DNA of 64,000 nt, from assembly GCA_016213405.1 (NCBI GenBank), contig JACRAM010000012.1:3948-67947 (forward strand), read 5' to 3'. A model generated the notes under the pieces. That model was not told the origin of the DNA. It saw only the letters and a program-made list of their open reading frames with translations, and made no database searches. This DNA comes from Bacteroidota bacterium (GTDB taxonomy: Bacteria; Bacteroidota; Bacteroidia; Palsa-948). A program made the position numbers and the translations under genes. Positions 3,001 through 26,106 of this stretch are shown piece after piece (position 1 is the first letter of the stretch; the number at the start of each line of letters is the position of its first letter).

Positions 3001-5545
3001 TGTAATAATATATGTAAATCCAGGCCCCATAGTGGGTGCCGGTACGGATCAGTTTGTATGCTCAGGCAGCGACTCAATAACTCTTAATGGAACTGTATTG
3101 AATTCAACTGGTGGTCAATGGACTACTTCCGGAAACGGAACATTCTCTCCCAATGATTCCACCCTTAATGGAAATTATATTTTCGGAAGCAATGACACAA
3201 GCACTGTAACGCTCGTGCTCACATCCACCGGAAACGGACAATGCGTTGCGGTAACAGATACGATGATTCTCATTATCGGAAGAACTCCTGTTGCGGCATT
3301 CTCCGGTTCTTCGGCTTGCACAGGGCAAACGGTTACATTCACTGATGCTTCCACTATTGTAAATGATACGATCGTTTCATGGGACTGGATAATTGACGGA
3401 GGAACAGATACACTTCAAAATCCAATTCATACGTATACTATTTCCGGCACAGATACTGTCACTCTTATTGTAACCACAAATATCGGCTGCACGGATACTG
3501 TGGTGCATGTAATAAATATAAATCCAACTCCTGCCGCATCATTCAGTTTCACGGTTGATTGCGTGAAGGATTCTGTATTCTTCACTGATAATTCTTCCAT
3601 CGCCTCCGGAAATATTATTTCATGGAACTGGAATTTCGGTGACGCTACTACAAGTCCATTGCAAAATCCCGTTCACTCCTACTCCACTTCAGGAACATTT
3701 ACGGTAACGCTTACTATTTCTTCCGATTCAGGATGCACGGCAACCGCTGTTGATACAGTTGTTTCATGCACAAATGTAATTGCCGGTTTTGTTTCTTCGG
3801 ATTCTTCTGTTTGCACAGGGCAGACAATAGCATTTACCGATACATCCACCGTAATGGCTGGTGACAGTATTATTTCATGGATCTGGAATTTTGGAGATGG
3901 CGGAACAGATACAGTAAAGAATCCTTCCTACTCTTATTCTCTGGCAGGAACATATACCGTAACGCTTATTGTTGGTACAAATGCCGGTTCATCGGATACA
4001 GCGGTGCATATAATAAATGTAAATCCAACACCTGTTGCTTCGTTCAGTTACATCACAACTTGCCTGAGTGATTCTGTTTACTTCAACGACCTTTCTGCTA
4101 TTTCTCTTCCCGGAAATATTATTTCATGGAGTTGGGATTTCGGTGACGCAACTACAAGCACACTCCAAAACCCTGTTCACTCCTACACCACTTCAGGTAC
4201 TGTTACCGTAACGCTTACAGTCACTTCTGATTCCGGCTGTACTTCAACCTATATTGATTCATTGATTCCCGGCAAACCTGTCATCGCATTGTTTGCATCG
4301 GCTTCTTCCGCTTGTGCCGGGCAGACAATTATATTTACAGATACCTCTATAGCAATTAATGATACTATCATTTCATGGAACTGGAACTTTGGTGATGGTG
4401 GAATAGATTCCATACCGATTGTAAACTATACCTACACGCTTGCAGGAACCTACAGCGTAGCATTAATTGTTACAGATAGTGTGGGATGTTCTGATACGTT
4501 AACAAAAATAATTACCATTAACCCAACACCTGTTGCGTCATTCACAGTTCTTACAACCTGCTCGCTTGATTCAGTTTTCTTCTTCAGCACATCAACCATC
4601 TCCAGCGGAACTATTAGTTCATGGAGTTGGAACTTTGGCGATCCTGCTTCCGGTGCAAATAATATTTCTTCTCTTGCGAATCCTTCTCACTATTATGATT
4701 CTCTCGGAGTATATGTTGTTTCGCTCACCGTTACTTCTGATTCAGGATGCACTTCCGCATTTAGCGATACCATTATTCCTGTCAAAGGAATTATTCCCGG
4801 ATTTAATTATTCAGGCGATTGCTGGTTCGCATATACATTCAGCGATTCTTCCGGTGTGGGAACGGGAGACAGCATCACAACCTGCTTCTGGAATTTTGGA
4901 GATGGCACCACTGATTCTACATGCAATCCTATACACTCATATTCCGTTGCCGGCACATATACCGTAACACATATTGTAACCAATGCAGGCGGATGTTCAG
5001 ACACGCTTACAAATGTCATCACCATTCTGCCGCTCCCGATGGCTGATTTCAATCCTACGAACGGAATTTATTATACCACACAGGCAGTTGCCTTCACTGA
5101 CCTCTCCACCAATGCGGTATCATGGGTATGGAATTTTGGTGATGGAGTAAGTGATAATGCGCAAAACCCCTCTCATAGTTTTAACGACAACGGATCGTTT
5201 GATGTAATGCTCATCGTAACAAACACGGATGGCTGTCTGGATACTGTGAAGCATTCATTTACTGTTAAAACATTTGTAGTATCCGTTCCCTCTGCATTCA
5301 CACCCAATGGTGACGGGCAAAATGATGTGCTGTCCGTTCGCGGTGGACCTATGAAAGAAATGGACTGGAGAATTTACAATGAATGGGGCAACGAAATCTT
5401 CCATGCAACTTCACAAGACAACGGATGGGATGGAACGTACAAAGGAAAACTTCAGCCCTCGGCAAGATATGTTTACATACTTACAGGAATAACTTATGGA
5501 GAGGATGTAGTAGATATTCATGGAGATGTAACCATCCTTAAGTAA
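1..5545 (+). CDS. Giant cell-surface adhesin-like T9SS cargo protein (5' end lies left of the window)
   Basis: ORF track 80..5545. The same frame stays open back to nt 2 and encodes GPNSFTSTLQNPTIAGATTADAGTYTV, another copy of the internal SGPNGFTST.QNP..AGTYT module, so the GTG at 80 is not the true start. The translation shows Ig-like modules, 10 tandem NAGADQTVCANN..LNG modules and 8 PKD-like units. It ends with PSAFTPNGDGQNDVL..IYNEWGNEIF..WDGTYKGK, the gliding-motility-associated / T9SS type B C-terminal domain. Confidence 0.9.
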   Translation, partial: GPNSFTSTLQNPTIAGATTADAGTYTVNVTENGCTSVDSTVNVIINQTPAAPAAGSNTPVCSGQTLSLTASTIVGVTYSWSGPNGFTSTAQNPTIINVTVAASGTYSVFASIGGCTGPVGITSVTVNPTPNPAVGSNSPVCEGNILSLTSSAVAGATYSWSGPNGFTSTSQNPSIAGVTSSNAGTYTLTVTSSLGCVSNPKTTVVTITPPILVSAGADQTVCANNATVTLNGSVSGGTTTGNWTTSGTGTFVPTSTTLNADYIPSSLDTATGILTFTLTSTGNGGCTAQTAVMTLTITDAPTANAGADQTLCANNDTVILNGSVNAAASGGIWISSGTGTFSPDNLSLSTTYIPDATDTLNGSVTIVLVTTGIGTCLADTDTVIVTITPAPIVNAGISTVACKNNANVPLNGTSSTGSGIWTTLGTGTFVPTPTTLNAIYNSSTPDTISGSVILILTSTGNGGCNPVTDTIVITYIDKPIVNAGADVTVCGNNASVALSGTSNTGSGTWAAIGGGGTFVPNSLNSTFTPSGAQITAGTATLILTSANNGTCNSVKDTLIVTITPAPTVNAGADQTVCANNSVVTLSGSFTTSTGAGWTTLGSGTFSPDTFSMGVTYTPSPADTFAGSVTIILTSTGNGLCNAVTDTMIITITPAPVVNAGPDIILCFSNLVATLNGTSSTGSGTWSTPNGSGTFGNASSLVTTYTATPADTTADSVIIVLTSAGNGLCNPVTDTMIITFDNFPSVNAGSDVTVCANADTVFLNGSSTTGSGVWTTSGTGTFSPDSITLNAFYIPSDSDTIAGTVTLTLTSLNGCAPVADSIIVTITPAPVVNAGPNQTICATQNTVSLNGSVSSGATTGQWTTLGSGTFSPDDLTLNATYSISTTDSAAGNVTLILTSTNNGNCLAVSDTVKLFFLQPPVANAGADQTVCANNAAQLNGTITGGSGTGIWTTPNGSGIFAPGNTSLNGTYTPSINDALTGNIILVLTSTNNGGCTPSTDTVIIYVNPGPIVGAGTDQFVCSGSDSITLNGTVLNSTGGQWTTSGNGTFSPNDSTLNGNYIFGSNDTSTVTLVLTSTGNGQCVAVTDTMILIIGRTPVAAFSGSSACTGQTVTFTDASTIVNDTIVSWDWIIDGGTDTLQNPIHTYTISGTDTVTLIVTTNIGCTDTVVHVININPTPAASFSFTVDCVKDSVFFTDNSSIASGNIISWNWNFGDATTSPLQNPVHSYSTSGTFTVTLTISSDSGCTATAVDTVVSCTNVIAGFVSSDSSVCTGQTIAFTDTSTVMAGDSIISWIWNFGDGGTDTVKNPSYSYSLAGTYTVTLIVGTNAGSSDTAVHIINVNPTPVASFSYITTCLSDSVYFNDLSAISLPGNIISWSWDFGDATTSTLQNPVHSYTTSGTVTVTLTVTSDSGCTSTYIDSLIPGKPVIALFASASSACAGQTIIFTDTSIAINDTIISWNWNFGDGGIDSIPIVNYTYTLAGTYSVALIVTDSVGCSDTLTKIITINPTPVASFTVLTTCSLDSVFFFSTSTISSGTISSWSWNFGDPASGANNISSLANPSHYYDSLGVYVVSLTVTSDSGCTSAFSDTIIPVKGIIPGFNYSGDCWFAYTFSDSSGVGTGDSITTCFWNFGDGTTDSTCNPIHSYSVAGTYTVTHIVTNAGGCSDTLTNVITILPLPMADFNPTNGIYYTTQAVAFTDLSTNAVSWVWNFGDGVSDNAQNPSHSFNDNGSFDVMLIVTNTDGCLDTVKHSFTVKTFVVSVPSAFTPNGDGQNDVLSVRGGPMKEMDWRIYNEWGNEIFHATSQDNGWDGTYKGKLQPSARYVYILTGITYGEDVVDIHGDVTILK
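638..3285 (+). repeat. Ten tandem ~88-aa (~265 bp) coding modules inside the adhesin
   Basis: The motif (V/A)NAG(A/P/S)DQT(V/I)CANN..V.LNG....G.WTT.G(T/S)GTFSP....LN..Y.PS..D...G.VTL.LTST.NG.C....D...VTITPAP recurs 10 times in the translation. Long stretches also recur at DNA level (e.g. aatgcgggtgc/ggaccaaactgtttgcgc). Confidence 0.85.
3290..5270 (+). repeat. Eight tandem PKD-like domain units inside the adhesin
   Basis: The pattern F.D.S......W.W.FGDG.....NP.H.Y...G.Y.VTL.V....GC.D recurs 8 times in the translation. Confidence 0.8.
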
Positions 5546-14228: not shown

Positions 14229-14243
14229 GTAGCCCGTAGGGGA
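14229..14243. repeat. attL-type core (gtagcccgtagggga), distal copy of the tRNA-Glu 3' end
   Basis: Exact 15/15 match to 26092-26106. Confidence 0.8.
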
Positions 14244-18299: not shown

Positions 18300-18400
18300 C
18301 TCATTTTTTCTTTTCTTAAAGTTCGGGGCTACCCCGAACCCTACCCCCGCAGTTAAGCAGACATACCTTTGGCAAAGAATTTCAAAAAATACTTTGTCAA

Positions 18401-18691
18401 ATGGAAAACCAATTAATCGTTACCCTGAAAGTTGATGAACTGAAAGGAATCATCAACGAAAGCGTGTCAAACGCTATCTCAAAAATCCCACACCAACCCA
18501 AAGAAGATGATTCTTTGTTACGAAGAAAAGACGTAGCAAAATTATTTTCTGTTTCGCTTGTAACTATTTCCGCATGGATGAAAAGTGGAAAGTTGCCGTA
18601 TCACCGCATCAATTCCAGAATCTTCTTTAAAAGGAAAGAAGTAATGGAAGCAATGCAATCCACACAAAAATATAAACGCTTACATAAATGA
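18401..18691 (+). CDS. Excisionase-type helix-turn-helix DNA-binding protein
   Basis: 96 aa. LLRRKDVAKLFSVSLVTISAWMKSGKLPYHRINSRIFFKRKEV fits the MerR-like/excisionase HTH_17 pattern. Its stop overlaps the start of the primase gene (ATGA). Confidence 0.75.
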   Translation: MENQLIVTLKVDELKGIINESVSNAISKIPHQPKEDDSLLRRKDVAKLFSVSLVTISAWMKSGKLPYHRINSRIFFKRKEVMEAMQSTQKYKRLHK

Positions 18692-20658
18692 AAAAGCCCC
18701 ATCTCGACAACGGGGCTTCAATCACGGAAAATAATTTTCCTTTGGAAATTCAGCAAGACAAAGGTAAAGATTTCCCGATTAACGCCAAGCCGTTTGTTTC
18801 CATTTATGAAACAGTAACGGATTCGGCCCCGAAACAAATTTCCATTTACGAAGCCCTGAGTAAAGTTTCTTCGGGCGAACTGGAAAAACAAATACTTGCG
18901 ATACGCGAATGTAAAATCAAAGAAGAAAGAGATAAACTGAAACGGAACTTACCTTCTATTACTGTTTCGGGAACTTTCAGCAAGGGACACGCGAAAGAAA
19001 ACATTACAGAGCATAGCGGATTAATTCAAATTGATTTTGATTCGGTAGAAAATCCTGCCAAGACGAAAGAAATTTTTAGGAATGATGTTTTCACATTCGC
19101 AACCTTTATCAGCCCATCGGGAACAGGTGTAAAAGTTATTGTAAAAGTTTCTCCTGAAAAACATTCTGAAAGTTTTTTGTTACTGAAAAAGTTTTATGCA
19201 GAAAAATATGGTCTAAAACTTGACGAAAAATGCAAGGACGTAAGCCGTTTGATGTTTTTAAGCCATGACAAAAATATTTTCGTCAATCCGAACTCTGTTT
19301 TATTCGATTCTGTTAGCCGAGATGTAGAAAAAATTATTTTGCATATAGAAAAAAATAAAATTGATATTAGCCCTGATTATGATAACTGGTTAAAAATTGG
19401 CTTTGCTTTTTCTTCTTACTTTGGAGAAACAGGAAAAAACTTTTTTCACCGCATAAGTAAATTTTATACGAAATACTCTTTTTTAGATTGCGAAAAACAA
19501 TATAATAACTGTTTGCGGGAAGAAAAAACCGCAAAGACGCAAGAAAAACGAGGGGTTTCTATAAAAAGTTTCTTCGCAATAGCAAAAAGTTTCAGTATAA
19601 ACATTTCTTCAGAAACGAAGAAAACAAAACCAGAAGAACCAGAAACAGAAAAGACAGAAGAAACAACAAAAGGAAGAAACGAAACAAAAACTAAAAACGA
19701 AACATCAAAGTTTTTTCTTGTAGAAAAGTTTATCAGTAGTCGTTACGAAATTCGATATAACGAGGTATCAAATGAAGTAGAATGTAAAACGAAAAATGAA
19801 ACAGAGTATAAAGCCCTAAATGAAAATAATCTTTTCAGAGAACTACAATTAAACAATATTTATTTCCCGCAAAACAATTTACTTGCTTTGCTTCGTTCTG
19901 ATTTTGTTTCGTCCTATAATCCAATAAAAAAATATTTTGATGAATTGCCTGAATGGGATAATACTACCGACCACATCAAAAAATTATGCAGTTATATCAC
20001 AGTAAAAGACCAAGAAAGATTCAACAGGCAGTTCAAAAAAATGCTTGTTCGCTGTATTGCTTGCGCCCTGCATGGTATTTTCAATAAACACGCTTTTATC
20101 TTAATTGGCGGGCAGAGTAGCGGAAAAACAACCATTACACGCTGGTTATGTCCGCCAAAATTGAAAAACTACATGGCGGAAAATATTTCTACTGATAAGG
20201 ACAGTTTAATTGCGCTATCAGAAAATTTTTTCATCGTACTGGATGAAATTGCTTCCCTGCATAAGACGGAACAAACCGCGCTGAAAAGTGTTTTCACGAA
20301 AGACAAAATAAAAATCAGGCGACCATTTGACCGAAAACCAACTGTAAGTATACGAAGGGCAAATTTTATCGGTTCAACAAATAAATATGAATTTCTAAAT
20401 GATGAAACTGGCTCTGTGCGCTGGCTTTCTTTCGTGATTGAAAAAATTGATTTTAATTACTCACAGGAAATAAATATTGATTTGGTCTGGGCGCAGGCGT
20501 ACACACTTTTTAAAAGCGGATTCAAATACGAATTAACGCTTGATGAAGTATTTGAAAACGAAAATTCAAACTCCGAACATCAGCAAACTTCAGTCGAAGT
20601 GGATTTGATTCAAAAACATTTTGCACTGCAACAAAAGAGGGCTACGATAAATATTTAA
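18688..20658 (+). CDS. VirE-family primase/helicase-like replication protein (BT4734-like N-domain + P-loop NTPase), frame-broken near the 3' end
   Basis: The N-terminal part SGTFSKGHAKENITEHSGLIQIDFD..FISPSGTGVKVIVKV fits a primase-like N-domain. Walker A is LIGGQSSGKTT and Walker B is FIVLDEIASL. The ORF stops at 20658, but a family-typical tail continues in another frame. Confidence 0.75.
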   Translation: MKKPHLDNGASITENNFPLEIQQDKGKDFPINAKPFVSIYETVTDSAPKQISIYEALSKVSSGELEKQILAIRECKIKEERDKLKRNLPSITVSGTFSKGHAKENITEHSGLIQIDFDSVENPAKTKEIFRNDVFTFATFISPSGTGVKVIVKVSPEKHSESFLLLKKFYAEKYGLKLDEKCKDVSRLMFLSHDKNIFVNPNSVLFDSVSRDVEKIILHIEKNKIDISPDYDNWLKIGFAFSSYFGETGKNFFHRISKFYTKYSFLDCEKQYNNCLREEKTAKTQEKRGVSIKSFFAIAKSFSINISSETKKTKPEEPETEKTEETTKGRNETKTKNETSKFFLVEKFISSRYEIRYNEVSNEVECKTKNETEYKALNENNLFRELQLNNIYFPQNNLLALLRSDFVSSYNPIKKYFDELPEWDNTTDHIKKLCSYITVKDQERFNRQFKKMLVRCIACALHGIFNKHAFILIGGQSSGKTTITRWLCPPKLKNYMAENISTDKDSLIALSENFFIVLDEIASLHKTEQTALKSVFTKDKIKIRRPFDRKPTVSIRRANFIGSTNKYEFLNDETGSVRWLSFVIEKIDFNYSQEINIDLVWAQAYTLFKSGFKYELTLDEVFENENSNSEHQQTSVEVDLIQKHFALQQKRATINI

Positions 20659-20885
20659 CGGCAACCGATATTCTTAGTTGTCTTGCCCAGCAATATCCGC
20701 ATTTATTAAAACAAAGCAATAAAATAGGAATCGGGAAAGCACTTACCTATCTCGGTTTCAAAAAAATTTCTTTTCGGGAAGCGAACAGGCAACCGAAGTA
20801 CGTTTATTATATAAAAATTGTAGAAGCACTACCTACACTTACTACAATAACGCAACACATTCAAACTGATAATTTAGAGATGTAG
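20640..20885 (+). other. Out-of-frame C-terminal continuation of the primase/helicase gene
   Basis: Frame 3 is open from 20556 to the TAG at 20883-20885. It reads ..KEGYDKYLTATDILSCLAQQYPHLLKQSNKIGIGKALTYLGFKKISFREANRQPKYVYYIK.., which looks like a genuine protein tail rather than noise. Confidence 0.5.
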
Positions 20886-20969
20886 TAAGATATATTTATT
20901 TTATCTTACTACATCTAACTACTTACTACTATATGACATTTTTTGTAGTCAGTAGTAAGAGTAGTAAGA
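20838..20969. repeat. Six copies of the 8-mer GTAGTAAG in both orientations, including an 11-bp perfect inverted repeat
   Basis: Forward copies are at 20882, 20952 and 20961. Reverse copies (cttactac) are at 20838, 20905 and 20922. The inverted repeat gtagtaagata-N9-tatcttactac spans 20882-20912. Confidence 0.8.
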
Positions 20970-20980
20970 GGTTTCCGCAT

Positions 20981-21043
20981 CGTTACAACAACGCTACAAC
21001 ACCGTTACAACATGGCTACAACATGGCTACAACATGGCTGCGG
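20981..21043 (+). repeat. Iteron array: 5.5 x 11-bp units (cgttacaacaa cgctacaacac cgttacaacat ggctacaacat ggctacaacat ggctgcgg)
   Basis: Read directly. The period is exactly 11 bp. Confidence 0.85.
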
Positions 21044-21120
21044 ACTGGTTAAATAACGTAAAATAACAGTTGCAACACAGTTAATAATGTCTGTAAATCT
21101 TTAACTGCTCCTTATCCTTA

Positions 21121-21162
21121 TCAAATCAAATCTTCAAAAATTCAAATCTTCTTCAAATCATT
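21121..21162 (+). repeat. TCAAATC(T/A)T repeats, the last two as an 11-bp tandem (ttcaaatcttc ttcaaatcatt)
   Basis: Read directly. Copies start at 21121, 21126, 21142 and 21153. Confidence 0.7.
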
Positions 21163-21206
21163 CCCATATCTTTTCCTTGACTTTATCATGTCGGTTGTAG
21201 AAACGC

Positions 21207-21239
21207 CTTGATACTTCTTTGATACTTCCTTGATAATGC
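21207..21239 (+). repeat. Iteron array: 3 x 11-bp units (cttgatacttc tttgatacttc cttgataatgc)
   Basis: Read directly. The period is 11 bp. Confidence 0.8.
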
Positions 21240-21299
21240 TTTAATAATCCTGAAAGCACACGCCTTACTTTACTTTACAAAACTTATCCGTGAAAAGAA

Positions 21300-21307
21300 T
21301 ATATTTG
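21300..21307 (+). promoter_or_regulatory. Candidate -7 box (TATATTTG) that would give a ~235-nt leader for mod
   Basis: Matches TAnnTTTG. Only TTTA, not TTTG, lies ~24 bp upstream. Confidence 0.3.
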
Positions 21308-21383
21308 CTCTCAACAAAAATAAAAACCATTAAAGTATAGAAACATAATACAGTTCAAATAAAGAATTTGCGTTAAGCCAATT

Positions 21384-21548
21384 TTCGTATCAGGAAACTG
21401 CTAATTTTCAAAGTACACGAAAGAAAGGTGAAACGCTCACGCAATGCGTGGGCTTTTGCTTTTTTCGTGTACTGGGATAGCAGTCCCTCTGATACGGATT
21501 AGTAGAATGTCCCACGCAGGTTTTTTTGTGGCTGCTAACACAAAAAAA
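21384..21548 (+). promoter_or_regulatory. Candidate structured RNA leader / regulatory element upstream of the Type III mod gene
   Basis: Nested complementary pairs: 21386-21393/21489-21496 (8 bp, extendable), 21397-21403/21478-21484 (7 bp) and 21413-21422/21463-21472 (10 bp, extendable). An apical palindrome cacgca-a-tgcgtg lies at 21438-21450. The apical tgcgtggg (21445-21452) is also complementary to the downstream cccacgca (21511-21518), which is followed by T7. A 10-bp hairpin tttttttgtg/cacaaaaaaa (21521-21530/21539-21548) ends 1 nt before the ATG. Confidence 0.4.
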
Positions 21549-21549
21549 T

Positions 21550-23451
21550 ATGACTGAACTTATTTGGGAAGGAAAGTACAAGGACAATAAAAAAGTTGCG
21601 CCTGTACGGATTGCCCTTCCATTTCAAACGATTGAAACAGTAAACGAGAGCGCACAGCAACGGCAAAAGACACTTGATTTTTTCGCAAGCGGAAAAACTA
21701 CCGAGTGGCGCAACCGACTTATTTGGGGCGACAAAAAATATGTTCTCCCTTCTTTGTTGCCAGAGTTTGCAGGAAAAGTAAACCTCATTTACATTGACCC
21801 TCCGTTTAATGTTGGTTCTGATTTTTCTTTTACCGCTACAATTCCCGATAATCCTGAAACAGAACAAGACGAAACAATTTCGTTTACAAAAGAGCCAAAC
21901 GTTATAGAACAAAAAGCATACAGAGATACTTGGGGTAGAGGTCTTGACAGTTACTTGCAATGGTTTTACGAAACAATATTATTGTTGAGGGAATTACTTT
22001 CTGAAAACGGAAGTATTTATGTTCATCTTGATTGGCGTTTGGCTCATTATGCTAAAACGGTTTTAGATGAAGTCTTTGGCTACGAAAATTTCAGAAATGA
22101 TTTACGATGGAAAAGGCAACCAGTAAGAGGTGCAAAAGCAACAGGTAATCAATATGCAAGAAATTCTGATATTATTCTTTTCTATTCTAAATCTGAAAAA
22201 TATATTTGGAATAACGCATACAAACCTTATGACCCTAATTTTATTAAGGAAAAATTTAGACCTGATAAAAAAGGTCGTTTATATCGTGATTCAGATTTAG
22301 GAGATTATTCGGAAGAATCCATTGCTGAATTTGAAAAGCAAGGGAAAATATATCTCACAAAAAATGGCAATAAAAGATTGATTCGCTTTCTTGATGAAGA
22401 AAAAGGTGAAGCACTTGGTGATATGTGGGTTGATATTCCAGAAGTAAATTCACAGGCAAAAGAAAGAGTAAATTATCCTACACAAAAACCCGAAGAACTA
22501 TTAGAAAGAGCGATTAATGCAAGTAGTAATCAAAATGATTTAGTCTTAGATTGCTTTTGTGGAAGTGGAACTACTGCAACTGTTTCTGAAAAATTAAATC
22601 GCAGATGGATTACTTGCGACTTAGGTAGATTTGCGATTCACACAGCAAGAAAAAGATTTTTAGAAATAAAAGATGTAAAACCTTTTGTAGTACAGAATCT
22701 CGGCAAGTATGAAAGGCAACAATGGGTGCAGGCAGAGTTTGAAAATACAGAGAACCGCACCGCACAGGAAAAAGCATATCGCAATTTTATTCTCGACCTC
22801 TATCACGCAAAATCCATTACTGGCTATGTATGGTTGCACGGCTCAAAGGCAGGTAGAATGGTTCACATTGGCAATGTGGACTCCCCTGTTTCAAATGGAG
22901 ATGTAAAAGCAATCGTTCAGGAACTTTGGAAATCAGTTGGCAAAAAATCAGATATTAAAAATAACGGAATAGATATTCTCGGATGGGATTTCGCATTTGA
23001 ACTGAATGAAACCGCAAAAGAATTTGCTTCAAAAAATAAAGTTGATTTGAAATTCAAAAAAATTCCTAACGAAGCGTTGGAAAAGAAAGCAGTTGAACAG
23101 GGAGATGTAAAATTTTATGAGTTGGCATATCTTGATGTGAAGGTGAAAAAAGAAAAGAAAAAAATTTCCCTCACGCTGAATAATTTTGTTGTCCCGCCTG
23201 ACGATATACCAGAAGAGGTCTTGAAAAACATAACTCATTGGAGTCAATGGATTGACTATTGGGCTGTGGATTGGAATTACGGCAATGATACATTTCATAA
23301 TGAATGGCAGAGTTACCGCACAAAACAAAATTCAAAAATTGAATTGAGCGCAACAAATACCTACGAGAAAACAGGAAAATATACTGTGATTGTAAAAGTG
23401 ATTGATATACTCGGAAATGATACAACAAAGGCAGTAGAAATAGAAGTATAA
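21550..23451 (+). CDS. mod: Type III restriction-modification system DNA methyltransferase (Mod; N6/N4 beta-class)
   Basis: Motif IV IYIDPPFNVGSDF precedes motif I VLDCFCGSGTTATV, the order seen in beta-class/Type III Mod. The gene lies directly upstream of a Res helicase-nuclease. The ATG at 21550 (MTELIWEGKYKD) is preferred over the TTG at 21526 from the ORF track. Confidence 0.85.
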   Translation: MTELIWEGKYKDNKKVAPVRIALPFQTIETVNESAQQRQKTLDFFASGKTTEWRNRLIWGDKKYVLPSLLPEFAGKVNLIYIDPPFNVGSDFSFTATIPDNPETEQDETISFTKEPNVIEQKAYRDTWGRGLDSYLQWFYETILLLRELLSENGSIYVHLDWRLAHYAKTVLDEVFGYENFRNDLRWKRQPVRGAKATGNQYARNSDIILFYSKSEKYIWNNAYKPYDPNFIKEKFRPDKKGRLYRDSDLGDYSEESIAEFEKQGKIYLTKNGNKRLIRFLDEEKGEALGDMWVDIPEVNSQAKERVNYPTQKPEELLERAINASSNQNDLVLDCFCGSGTTATVSEKLNRRWITCDLGRFAIHTARKRFLEIKDVKPFVVQNLGKYERQQWVQAEFENTENRTAQEKAYRNFILDLYHAKSITGYVWLHGSKAGRMVHIGNVDSPVSNGDVKAIVQELWKSVGKKSDIKNNGIDILGWDFAFELNETAKEFASKNKVDLKFKKIPNEALEKKAVEQGDVKFYELAYLDVKVKKEKKKISLTLNNFVVPPDDIPEEVLKNITHWSQWIDYWAVDWNYGNDTFHNEWQSYRTKQNSKIELSATNTYEKTGKYTVIVKVIDILGNDTTKAVEIEV

Positions 23452-23453
23452 AA

Positions 23454-26012
23454 ATGGGAAGAAAGAAAAAACAAATAGCAAACGCTCCTGAACTATTTAA
23501 TATTCAGGAACGGCTTTCAACTGCGCCCTGTGTTCCTGCAATCCGCAGTGAAATAAAAAAATGGAGAGATAACGGCTACAAAGGGATTACAGATACTACC
23601 AGAGAACTATTGAATTACTGGTTTTATACTGACCACCCGAACCGTTTTAAATATCACCTTGCCCAACAAGAAGCGATTGAAACGCTGATTTACATTTACG
23701 AAGTAAAAAAGATTCGCACACGAAAAGAGTTGCTTGAAAAATATGCTATCAATCAAAAGGACTTGCGTTTGCCTCCTTATGACAATTTTGCTCGGTACTG
23801 TATTAAAATGGCAACTGGCAGCGGAAAAACAAAAGTGATGTCATTAGCAATCGCTTGGCAGTATTTTAATGCAGTAAGAGAAGATGAAAAAGAATACGCA
23901 AAGAATTTTTTGATTATTGCCCCGAATATAATTGTGTTTGACCGATTGAAAACTGATTTTGAAAGTGGACGTATTTTTAAAACCGACCCTCTTTATCCCC
24001 GACACTTTGAACTATTTTGGAATTTTGATTTTTATATGCGTGGAGATGGAGAGCGTACTAATAGTGATGGCGGATTATACCTTACAAACATTCAGCAATT
24101 TTATGAAAGAGATAACGGAAAATCGGATGAGCCAGATGTTATGACACAAATGCTCGGCAGTAAACCACCCGCAAGCAAATCTGAAATATCCGATTTCGCA
24201 AGCAGAATAGTTAAGCGCGATGGATTAGTAATGCTATTGAACGATGAAGCGCACCACACACACGAAGAAGATAACGAATGGAATAATTTTATCCGCACAC
24301 TTAACGAGAAGAAAACACTTTCAGCGCAAGTAGATTTTTCCGCTACTCCACGATATTCTAAAGGTTCTCTTTTCGCTTGGACAATTTTTGATTACCCCCT
24401 TAAACAAGCAATAGTGGACAGAATAGTTAAACGTCCGATAAAAGGAATTTCAAAAATTGATGAAGCAAAATCTACTACTGCAAGTATCAGATACAAAGGA
24501 TTCTTAACCGCAGGGGTTGAGCGATGGAAAGAATACACAGAGCAACTTTCTCCCCTAAAGAAAAAACCGATTCTGTTTGTAATGATGAACAATACGGATG
24601 AAGCGGATGAGGTTGGCGACTGGTTAAAGACGAAATATCCTTCGCATTTTGGAGGAGATAAAACACTTATCATTCATACTGATAAATCAGGGGATGTATC
24701 AAAAAAGGATTTGGAAGAAGCGAGAAAACTTGCTCGTGAAGTAGATGATGAAAAATCACCTGTGAACACAATTATTTCCGTGCTAATGCTTCGTGAAGGT
24801 TGGGACGTGCAGAATGTAACAGTAGTAGTAGGATTGCGCCCTTATTCAGCAAAAGCAAACATACTTCCAGAGCAAACCATCGGCAGAGGACTTCGCCTTA
24901 TGTTCAGGGGATTAGTAGATGATTACCAAGAGCGTGTAGATATTATCGGCAATAAGGCATTTATGGATTTTGTTTCCGAACTTGAAAGATTAGAGAATAT
25001 AAAATTTGAAACCTATGACATCGGAAAAGACAAATTAAAGATTATCACCATTGAGGCAGACGAAAAAAAAATAAAAATGGATATTGGTATTCCCGATATT
25101 TCGCCTTTGCTTGAAAGAAAAAAATCTTTAGCGGATGAAATAGGAAAACTTGACGTAACAAAATTCAATATTCCAAAACTTCCTTTGCGCGGAAAAGATA
25201 TTGAGGACTTAAAAACTTTTATTTATGAAGGGAAAGACATTTTAACCGATGAAAAATTATTTGAACGTACATACACCATTCCACCTGTACAAACTCCAGA
25301 GGAAGTAATAGGATATTATGCCCGCAGGATTGCTAAGGATATTAAATTGCCTTCGCAGTTTGCCTCACTTGTACCGAAGATTAGAGATTTTTTTGAAGTG
25401 AAAGCATTTGGAAAAAAAGTTGATTTGAATGATGAAAATGTAATAAAGGCAATGAGTAGCAACGTAGCAAGTTTTGTAGTCATAAAAGAATTTGAAAAAG
25501 CATTACGAGATATTGTTGTAGAAGTAAGAACACCCGAACTCATAACAGAGAAACGGCAACTATCTTCAACCGCACCTTTTCCGTTCTCTCGTTTGGCGTA
25601 TGAATCAAAGAAAACAGTATTTAATTACGTTGCTTGCAGTAATGAATACGAAAGAGACTTTGCAAAATTTCTTCATGGCGCAGGTGATGTAAAAGCATTT
25701 GCAAAACTCCCAGAGCAATTCGGATTTTGTATTCAGTACACCGATAAGTTGGCAAACATCAGAAATTACTATCCTGATTTTATTGTTGTCTTAAAAGACG
25801 GCTCACATTGGATTGCAGAAACGAAAGGCAGGGAAGACGTAGAAGTTGCGTTAAAAGATAACTCTGCGCTTCTCTGGTGCAAGAACGCAACGGAACTCAC
25901 AGGAACAAATTGGAATTACATTAAAGTTCTGCAAAAAGAGTTTGAATCACTCAACCCAAGTGAGTTTGAAGATTTGAATGTGCTTTCTGCACAGACGGAA
26001 ATAGAGTATTAA
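23454..26012 (+). CDS. res: Type III restriction enzyme Res subunit (SF2 helicase + PD-(D/E)xK nuclease)
   Basis: Helicase motifs are present: motif I MATGSGKT, motif II LNDEAHH, motif VI QTIGRGLR. The C-terminal YYPDFIVVLKDGSHWIAETKG fits a PD..(D/E)xK nuclease core. The start is 2 bp after the mod stop. Confidence 0.9.
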   Translation: MGRKKKQIANAPELFNIQERLSTAPCVPAIRSEIKKWRDNGYKGITDTTRELLNYWFYTDHPNRFKYHLAQQEAIETLIYIYEVKKIRTRKELLEKYAINQKDLRLPPYDNFARYCIKMATGSGKTKVMSLAIAWQYFNAVREDEKEYAKNFLIIAPNIIVFDRLKTDFESGRIFKTDPLYPRHFELFWNFDFYMRGDGERTNSDGGLYLTNIQQFYERDNGKSDEPDVMTQMLGSKPPASKSEISDFASRIVKRDGLVMLLNDEAHHTHEEDNEWNNFIRTLNEKKTLSAQVDFSATPRYSKGSLFAWTIFDYPLKQAIVDRIVKRPIKGISKIDEAKSTTASIRYKGFLTAGVERWKEYTEQLSPLKKKPILFVMMNNTDEADEVGDWLKTKYPSHFGGDKTLIIHTDKSGDVSKKDLEEARKLAREVDDEKSPVNTIISVLMLREGWDVQNVTVVVGLRPYSAKANILPEQTIGRGLRLMFRGLVDDYQERVDIIGNKAFMDFVSELERLENIKFETYDIGKDKLKIITIEADEKKIKMDIGIPDISPLLERKKSLADEIGKLDVTKFNIPKLPLRGKDIEDLKTFIYEGKDILTDEKLFERTYTIPPVQTPEEVIGYYARRIAKDIKLPSQFASLVPKIRDFFEVKAFGKKVDLNDENVIKAMSSNVASFVVIKEFEKALRDIVVEVRTPELITEKRQLSSTAPFPFSRLAYESKKTVFNYVACSNEYERDFAKFLHGAGDVKAFAKLPEQFGFCIQYTDKLANIRNYYPDFIVVLKDGSHWIAETKGREDVEVALKDNSALLWCKNATELTGTNWNYIKVLQKEFESLNPSEFEDLNVLSAQTEIEY

Positions 26013-26091: not shown

Positions 26092-26106
26092 GTAGCCCGT
26101 AGGGGA
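26092..26106. repeat. attR-type core (gtagcccgtagggga) within the tRNA-Glu 3' end
   Basis: Exact 15/15 match to 14229-14243. Confidence 0.8.

Follow-up and report, generated by a model that had tools for sequence, protein, structure and literature searches.

Attenuator and riboswitch leaders are 5' leaders with a covarying fold, in which one strand has two possible partners and one of the two pairings lies immediately before a U-run. The leader described here, which precedes a Type III mod gene in a 64-kb stretch of Bacteroidota DNA (the window, meaning the whole of the DNA that was analysed), shares these properties. Unlike those leaders, it is a rod and not a multi-helix junction, the strands of its putative terminator are separated by a spacer of ~58 nt, and it is found on arbitrary cargo instead of on a single pathway, with no known ligand. 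The HK022 put, EAR and conAn RNAs are also cis-acting structured RNAs that lie behind a mobile-element promoter and ahead of terminators and long variable operons; the window element differs from them in that similarity of sequence or model is absent, and the complementarity between its tail and its apex has no counterpart in those RNAs.

The integron platform (Pc and attI) is organized in a comparable way, with a backbone promoter and leader that drive exchangeable cargo at a nearly fixed distance. The window element differs in having neither an attC-like conserved hairpin base nor an integron integrase, and its cargo junctions lie 3' of the rod, not inside it. An attC site as such was rejected, as the pattern is reversed: the apex is almost fixed and the base helices are free to vary.

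A catalogue of candidate structured RNAs includes HMP2_4078, a 109-bp palindromic candidate found chiefly in Bacteroidetes and in the neighbourhood of D5 N-terminal and phage integrase domains, which is not a predicted terminator and has no assigned function (Fremin and Bhatt 2021, PMC8040213). Its size and context fit the window rod, the two being compared by description only, and the catalogue may already list the element, unnamed, under this entry. HMP2_1881 of the same catalogue is a different rod-shaped leader RNA.

Fold of the leader in the window

The leader occupies 21300-21549, between the last backbone gene of a mobile element and its first cargo gene. The features of the region are:

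18688-20658, + strand: primase/helicase gene, the last backbone gene upstream (Pfam domains BT4734-like_N, PriCT_2 and VapE)
20971-21246: iteron arrays, between the primase/helicase gene and the leader
21300-21307, + strand: promoter box TATATTTG (TAnnTTTG, the Bacteroidota -7 box), from the sequence
~21313-21317, + strand: predicted transcript start, placed from the box
21362-21373, + strand: 5' strand AAGAATTTGCGT of outer helix P0, containing the conserved GCGTT motif (single-sequence folds, RNAalifold)
21384-21498, + strand: rod domain of ~115 nt (P1, P2, P3, P3a), from the fold and compensatory changes
21384-21394 with 21487-21498, + strand: P1, with core cgtatcag (21386-21393) / ctgatacg (21489-21496)
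21397-21403 (actgcta) with 21478-21484 (tagcagt), + strand: P2, from sequence and fold
21404-21412 (ATTTTCAAA) opposite 21473-21477 (TGGGA), + strand: internal loop, from the fold
21413-21434 with 21454-21472, + strand: P3 and P3a, from the fold
21413-21422 (gtacacgaaa) with 21463-21472 (tttcgtgtac), + strand: core of P3, from the sequence
21435-21453, + strand: apical hairpin P4, GCTCACGC-AAT-GCGTGGGC, from sequence and alignment
21511-21518, + strand: tail CCCACGCA, complementary to the apex 3' arm at 21445-21452
21514-21526, + strand: 3' strand ACGCAGGTTTTTT of P0, pairing with 21362-21373
21521-21527, + strand: U-run (T7), directly 3' of the tail, from the sequence
21521-21530 with 21539-21548, + strand: second hairpin, tttttttgtg/cacaaaaaaa, 10 bp with loop gctgctaa, from the fold
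21550-23451, + strand: Type III mod, the first cargo gene (Pfam N6_N4_Mtase, 4.8e-46)
23454-26012: res, after mod (Pfam ResIII, RE_endonuc)

The original prediction had proposed a set of nested helices here. RNA folding agrees with it: region 21380-21555 reaches -71.7 kcal/mol in RNAfold, far better than shuffled sequences (mean -38.6; z = -8.6, with 0 of 200 shuffles equal), and the minus strand of the region folds more weakly, at -63.1 kcal/mol. All of the pairings that had been listed occur in the sequence at the positions claimed for them. In particular, tgcgtggg at 21445-21452 is complementary to cccacgca at 21511-21518, a pairing that had been read as an H-type pseudoknot with the apex. 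It draws on the same 3' arm as the apical hairpin does, and therefore constitutes an alternative, mutually exclusive helix and not a coexisting pseudoknot. In the window copy, P4 is followed directly by TTTTGCTTTT. Across the family, the stem sequence of P4 is nearly invariant, with a variable loop of 3-6 nt.

The outer helix P0, which was not part of the original prediction, is part of the best fold when the RNA is cut at the U-run, and the ACGC of the tail takes part in it too. It is backed by helix 2 of the family alignment, which is 97% paired, with three pairs changed on both sides; P0 is not kept in the class formed by L001 and L004. The second hairpin ends 1 nt ahead of the mod ATG (21550), and pairs the U-run with the A-rich stretch found there. 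This hairpin, originally read as masking the start codon, is shared with the sister island L081, where it has a different loop; its exact form is confined to this lineage. In gut relatives, a stem-loop whose loop resembles GGNANCUGG lies 2-18 nt ahead of the ATG. A leader peptide was also considered and rejected, as the rod has a single ATG (21444), which belongs to the variable apex loop and is missing in relatives.

Relatives of the leader in Bacteroidota mobile elements

The window is 86% identical to L081 over 18363-21526, and the homology stops at the U-run. L081 has the same backbone and leader ahead of a Mod that is only 23% identical, and the two islands differ in P1, P2 and P3, with compensatory changes. 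Relatives were found with two covariance models, R1 and R2, which were also used to confirm pattern matches. The search returned ~60 relatives, 44 of them distinct. Covariation, suggested originally as a check on the fold, is found across these leaders: 56 of 65 pairs in the family alignment have changed on both sides while still pairing, and none of 500 shuffles reaches the observed values. Paired cells make up 82.9% of the alignment, compared with 63.4% in the shuffles and 35-46% with the partners slid. Pairing stands at 99% in P2 and at 90% in P3, both sides of every pair having changed. Across the family there are 317 G-U pairs and 77 A-C mismatches, an excess that favours the + strand. 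The structured RNA is real, as had been predicted, and lies on the + strand in a leader that starts at the TAnnTTTG box. The hairpin represents a structure that is widespread in Bacteroidota mobile elements, where it stands between the element's promoter and the cargo; the 64-kb window contains a single copy. The strength of the covariation warrants a new RNA family entry.

BLASTN and nhmmer searches of the leader against 80 Mod-homologue loci gave no match. The models found divergent versions in three of the same loci (L001, L004 and L011), indicating that sequence search alone is misleading. The relaxed pattern CTCACGC-N-GCGTGGG gave mostly false matches in viral contigs, with 3 of 118 loci confirmed by the models, and for the class-B pattern GCACCC..GGGTGC..GCACCC, which gave 119 matches, R2 confirmed none of the first 100 loci.

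The leader belongs to the backbone of the mobile element and not to its cargo. In many integrative or mobilizable elements of Bacteroidota, the same RNA family sits 3' of a relaxase, primase or integrase gene and ~40 nt 5' of the first cargo gene. A Mob_Pre relaxase gene is the upstream neighbour in 26 of 49 cases, and an integrase or primase gene takes this place at times; in L191, L204 and L001 the element is present without an adjacent primase or relaxase. The cargo downstream includes two unrelated Type III R-M systems, AbiE/GmrSD, UvrD-like helicases, radical SAM proteins and surface proteins. A protein look-up for the context of L083 gave no match.

The promoter box that had been proposed at 21300 is present, and such a box recurs in the family. 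A same-strand TAnnTTTG box lies no more than 130 nt upstream in 40 of the 44 distinct members (chance expectation 0.05 per 130 nt), at a distance of 33-44 nt in 35 of those 40. In 34 of 38 members, the element and the first downstream ORF share a strand; 28 of these 34 ORFs start within ~45 nt, and another box intervenes in only 4. The RNA evidence consists of assembled metatranscriptome contigs, which have flat depth and break at the multi-copy apex. In two mouse-gut metatranscriptomes (X63 and X68), contigs begin at positions 1608 and 1629 of relative L237, at the start of the element and just 3' of the promoter box, extend ~700 nt into the cargo gene and then depart from L237; none lies over the upstream mob gene of L237. 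Run X51 contains a 297-nt contig made up of the leader and 56 nt of CDS only. The box, the ORF spacing and the RNA contigs of the relatives place the element in a 5' untranslated leader that is transcribed together with the downstream genes.

The original prediction had recognized no named RNA family, and no family of Rfam 15 matches the element. Only the tRNA passes its gathering score in the whole window; at E values of up to 10, region 21250-21600 gave chance-level matches of at most 19 bits, compared with gathering scores of at least 54, and the gut relatives L295, L191 and L198 had no match. The literature on FopS and other named Bacteroides small RNAs gives no link to the element. A 6S RNA was rejected because the rod has only small internal loops (9 nt opposite 5 nt) and no large central bubble, and Rfam returned no 6S match. 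A MITE or REP repeat was rejected because the window has one copy, and all copies lie behind a promoter and before mobile-element cargo.

Alternative pairing of the apex arm and the tail

With moderate confidence, we regard the element as a cis-acting 5' leader RNA of the backbone, an attenuator of the cargo operon that is transcribed rightward from TATATTTG and probably gates read-through into the cargo. The leader consists of the rod (P1-P2-P3-apex) followed by the tail, the U-run and the second hairpin. In the proposed mechanism, the apex hairpin would sequester the 3' arm GCGUGGG. Once released, this arm would pair with CCCACGC of the tail, directly 5' of the U-run, to form a putative terminator; in this lineage, the A-rich stretch before the ATG could be a further partner of the freed U-run. 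A folded rod would permit read-through into the cargo, a direction of control that we infer from the arm being either held in the rod or, when released, part of a terminator. A putative effector (some protein, RNA or ligand) would remodel the rod and shut read-through off.

The pairing of the apex 3' arm with the tail beside the U-run, which was part of the original prediction, is backed by covariation across three sequence classes. The main class has GCGUGGG:CCCACGC (apex 3' arm : tail), L001 and L004 have GGGUGC:GCACCC, and L011 has GGGCGCG:CGCGCCU. The strands of L084, GGCGUGGG:CCUGCGCU, include three G-U pairs. A U-run comes after the tail in the window, L081, L083, L084, L245, L281, L218, L211, L208, L001, L004 and L011, and in environmental members it lies directly 3' of the tail.

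Several observations count against an attenuator. Gut members mostly have no U-run right after the tail, and have other local hairpins instead. The rod is favoured by 12.7 kcal/mol over the alternative conformer, which would require either a loop of ~58 nt or a tail folded back over the ~35-bp rod. The tail also nearly repeats the apex 5' arm, a pattern that repetition of a protein-binding word would produce as well. Finally, the tail is contested by P0, a helix with support of its own within the main class. A further terminator-like signal was seen in the consensus scan, formed by P4 (21435-21453) and TTTTGCTTTT, yet the U-rich stretch is paired in P3a. The stretch after P4 is not U-rich in gut members, and transcripts run through the apex region.

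Other readings of the element and its significance

Antitermination RNAs have precedent on phages and conjugative elements. A processive antitermination RNA, whose nascent rod would bind RNA polymerase and make it ignore both the nearby terminator and terminators in foreign cargo, would suit a cargo-independent leader right behind a promoter and right before terminator-like signals, on mobile elements with exchangeable cargo, and would be consistent with contigs that reach ~700 nt into a cargo gene. However, the put and EAR models of Rfam show no similarity, and the complementarity of the tail to the apex 3' arm is left unexplained; we consider this reading unlikely. A low probability is also given to a static 5' structure with no switch, serving in mRNA protection, in insulation or as an RNase III site that splits backbone from cargo transcripts. 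The near-perfect ~35-bp double-stranded rod at the 5' end of the mRNA would be appropriate to such a role, and the leader-only X51 contig could be a stable 5' fragment, but the nearly invariant apex stem, the conserved internal loops and the covarying tail exceed the needs of stability or of RNase III.

Quite improbable is a separate gene for a trans-acting small RNA, ended at P0 or at the tail and U-run and targeting helper conjugative elements or the host, with the cargo expressed by read-through. In its favour are a separate promoter, pairing between the 5' and 3' ends of the element (P0), the U-run of environmental members, and apex words that are ~9 times deeper than the flanks in the RNA contigs, probably owing to copy number. 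Against this stand the short, constant distance to the first cargo ATG and the lack of a second promoter, the contigs that are unbroken from leader into cargo, and the gut members, which have no clear terminator after the tail.

A DNA-level element (a single-strand initiation site or promoter, part of a replication origin, or operator or recombination sites built on the CNCACGC word) is very improbable. The element adjoins iteron arrays and a primase gene in the window and relaxase genes elsewhere, and the CNCACGC word occurs three times, as a palindrome and a direct copy. As for a single-strand DNA site of the Frpo, ssi or sso type, RNA is made the likelier form by a promoter that is conserved upstream and by transcription through the element. 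G-U pairs exceed A-C mismatches 4:1, the spacing to the start codon is fixed, the loop length varies from 3 to 6 nt, the cargo junctions fall 3' of the rod, and the element occurs without a neighbouring primase or relaxase (L191, L204, L001). The operator alternative raised in the original prediction is unlikely in view of the covariation of the flanking helices, the bias of G-U pairs towards one strand and a lineage (L084) that keeps the tail pairing only via G-U wobbles.

A regulator dedicated to Type III R-M, delaying res or boosting mod after entry into a host, is hardly credible: three Mod-homologue loci (L001, L004, L011) carry a version upstream, but 77 of the 80 closest loci lack the element, the L081 leader precedes a highly divergent Mod and ~60 relatives precede unrelated cargo, so that a specific tie to mod is unsupported and the suggested delay of restriction finds no special support.

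The attenuator reading can be taken further, more tentatively. It is possible, if doubtful, that the leader is a cargo-independent RNA switch built into integrative and mobilizable elements of Bacteroidota, a new class of leader that senses the state of the element or the host and gates any cargo, from defence systems to surface proteins. If true, it would resemble the integron promoter platform, but with regulation at the RNA level. The element is a sequence landmark for the junction of backbone and cargo when such mobile elements are annotated. Should the leader control cargo expression, it would be a common regulatory part of many mobile elements in gut and environmental Bacteroidota, and would offer Bacteroides genetics a small and portable control part. 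In that case it would matter for the switching on of newly acquired genes once they have been transferred, the relevant cargo seen here including restriction-modification, abortive-infection and helicase-based systems.

The leader and the island that carries it

The island is 11.9 kb long, with a 15-nt direct repeat, GTAGCCCGTAGGGGA, at either end (14229-14243 and 26092-26106); the right-hand copy is the 3' end of a tRNA-Glu(UUC) on the minus strand. Its order is Bacteroidota-type tyrosine integrase, HEPN gene, two unknown genes, HTH_17 gene, primase/VapE helicase, spacer, element, mod and res. The spacer, 900 nt long and with 11-bp-periodic iterons, separates the primase/VapE helicase gene from the element. 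The iteron field (20824-21246) contains GTTACAACA-type units with 11-bp periodicity at 20971-21034, CTTGATACTTC units at 21206-21246, and GTAGTAAG words in both orientations; all are conserved in L081, a sister island on a metagenome contig. Lying next to the primase, the field looks like the island's replication origin. The primase/VapE ORF of the window (region 18688-20885) stops at 20658, giving 656 aa. Its 83%-identical L081 relative is 733 aa long and ends in a DUF3874-like tail, which suggests a frameshift close to the 3' end of the window copy.

The pairings and other features of the original prediction are all present between 21300 and 21552, each at the coordinates given there.

Features of the leader in the window
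21300-21307, + strand: TAnnTTTG box, a promoter-type box upstream of the element
21362-21373 with 21514-21526, + strand: P0, the outer helix
about 21384-21498, + strand: the rod, with helices P1, P2 and P3
21435-21453, + strand: apical hairpin (apex)
21511-21518, + strand: tail
21521-21527, + strand: U-run
21521-21548, + strand: second hairpin, in which the U-run pairs with the A-rich stretch ahead of the mod ATG (21550); it recurs in L081

The RNA of 21380-21555 folds into a single long rod (P1, P2, P3 and the apical hairpin) followed by a second hairpin of 10-11 bp. The fold energy is -71.7 kcal/mol, whereas 200 dinucleotide shuffles average -38.6 (z = -8.6), and the minus strand folds more weakly (-63.1 kcal/mol). 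P0 encloses the entire domain if the RNA is made to end at the U-run. No match to the element was obtained in Rfam 15 at gathering thresholds, nor with E values of up to 10.

Covariation, promoter and transcripts

Family members were found by searching IMG/VR with patterns based on the apex and tail, and covariance models were built from three and then from 63 sequences. The models confirm about 60 copies, which reduce to 44 distinct ones; BLAST finds further copies on Bacteroides, Phocaeicola, Parabacteroides and Prevotella replicons, at sites that carry no annotation. One contig, L289, has a second, divergent rod copy at 660-809, with a longer and different apex and without a matching tail, besides a standard copy at 4782-4963.

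In the model-based alignment, which by its fitting favours the structure, 82.9% of cells are paired. Shuffling the 3' letters lowers this to 63.4%, and sliding the partners by 1-3 columns to 35-46%; none of 500 shuffles reached the observed values. Pairing reaches 99% in P2 and 90% in P3, and single positions show as many as four pair types. Compensatory changes, named as a check in the original prediction, are present: both sides have changed at 56 of 65 pairs, and an independent MAFFT comparison of the window with L081 gives the same compensations. There P1, P2 and P3 differ in sequence within an otherwise similar leader and retain their pairing (in P2, ACTGCTA/TAGCAGT against ATTCGAC/GTCGAAT); the apex and tail are identical.

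The paired columns hold 317 G-U pairs against 77 A-C mismatches, an excess that favours an RNA read from the + strand. A same-strand TAnnTTTG box lies within 130 nt upstream in 40 of the 44 distinct members (chance expectation about 0.05 boxes per 130 nt), in 35 of them at 33-44 nt. The transcript evidence consists of assembled contigs rather than reads. Two mouse-gut metatranscriptomes yield 3.2 kb contigs that start at 1608 and 1629 of locus L237, where the model match begins at 1629. They follow L237 for about 700 nt, crossing the element and entering the downstream gene, before diverging; no contig covers the upstream relaxase gene. An isolate transcriptome gives one 297-nt contig comprising the leader and just the first 56 nt of coding sequence. 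RNA contigs are interrupted at the apex, where word depth is about nine times that of the flanks; a multi-copy element would be expected to give this pattern.

Cargo behind the leader

The original prediction tied the element to Type III mod, an association that does not hold across the family. A sequence search found no match to the leader at the loci of the 80 closest Mod homologues (56-68% identical, from many phyla); the model detects divergent versions at three Mod-homologue loci (L001, L004 and L011). At L001, the ORFs of the 4 kb upstream include no recognisable integrase, relaxase or primase. L081 aligns to 18363-21526 of the window at 86% identity, a span that takes in the primase, iterons and the element in full, and homology ends exactly at the end of the U-run (window 21526, L081 3244). 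The first gene behind the L081 leader is also a Type III mod, yet its product is merely 23% identical to the window Mod; cargo has therefore been swapped directly behind the leader.

A Mob_Pre relaxase is the closest gene upstream in 26 of 49 distinct cases and a tyrosine integrase in four; in the window and L081 it is the primase. One phage-like contig has the element beside a serine recombinase. In a phage-like contig (L204), tandem GTTCCGTTTTATTCCCGGTTATTCC-type repeats occupy 1700-1790, between a serine recombinase module and the leader. The first downstream ORF is on the same strand in 34 of 38 members and begins within about 45 nt of the model's end in 28 of these 34; a second promoter box intervenes in four members only. 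Cargo includes UvrD-like helicases, radical SAM proteins, BspA-type LRR and TPR proteins, methylases, AbiE, GmrSD, HEPN and small lipoproteins. The mobility genes upstream, the close same-strand ORF and the diverse cargo indicate that the leader is part of the backbone and serves any cargo behind it.

In gut members (L207, L226, L237, L253, L283 and others) the stretch between tail and ATG holds a stem-loop, 2-18 nt ahead of the first cargo start codon, whose stems covary and whose loop is GGNANCUGG-like. The window hairpin at 21521-21548, with loop GCTGCTAA, looks like its counterpart. An RNA contig from run X53 (at L295 2849) matches the leader to the last base before the ATG and then enters a different ORF; the conserved leader of gut elements therefore reaches the start codon of variable first genes.

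Competing helices and a possible mechanism

The pseudoknot originally proposed between apex and tail stands as a possible pairing; coexistence with the apical hairpin does not, since the 3' arm of that hairpin is reused, and the two are alternatives. The tail matches the apex class by class: CUCACGC/GCGUGGG with CCCACGC or UCCACGC in the main class, GCACCC/GGGUGC with GCACCC in L001 and L004, and CGCGCCC/GGGCGCG with CGCGCCU in L011. L084 keeps the complementarity, its tail CCUGCGCU matching GGCGUGGG by way of three G-U wobbles. Five to nine U follow the tail immediately in environmental members; in gut members other small hairpins mostly replace the U-run. Complementarity in each class, together with the U-run, supports an apex-3'-arm/tail helix competing with the apical hairpin, in what would be a terminator/antiterminator layout. 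The alternative helix spans about 58 nt, and its conformer, when forced, is 12.7 kcal/mol weaker than the rod. P0 also competes for the tail; it covaries within the main class and is absent from L001 and L004. As the tail nearly copies the apex 5' arm, the two may instead be a repeated recognition word.

We consider it probable that the element is a cis-acting backbone leader RNA that controls transcript elongation into the first cargo gene and perhaps the translation of that gene as well. In this reading the rod, when folded, would permit read-through, and the tail/apex-arm helix together with the U-run would switch it off. Processive antitermination by the leader is unlikely, and a static stabilising or processing structure similarly so; a trans-acting small RNA is less likely still, and a role at the DNA level very unlikely.

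No link to the element was found in the literature examined on Bacteroides small RNAs. Fremin and Bhatt (2021; PMC8040213) list HMP2_4078, a 109-bp palindromic Bacteroidetes candidate near D5_N and integrase domains, which, from its published description, may be the same element. A different rod-shaped Bacteroidetes RNA in that study, HMP2_1881, begins immediately behind a TAnnTTTG box and lies ahead of 'radical SAM mobile pair' genes. Placing a rod-shaped leader behind this type of promoter thus seems to be a recurrent design.
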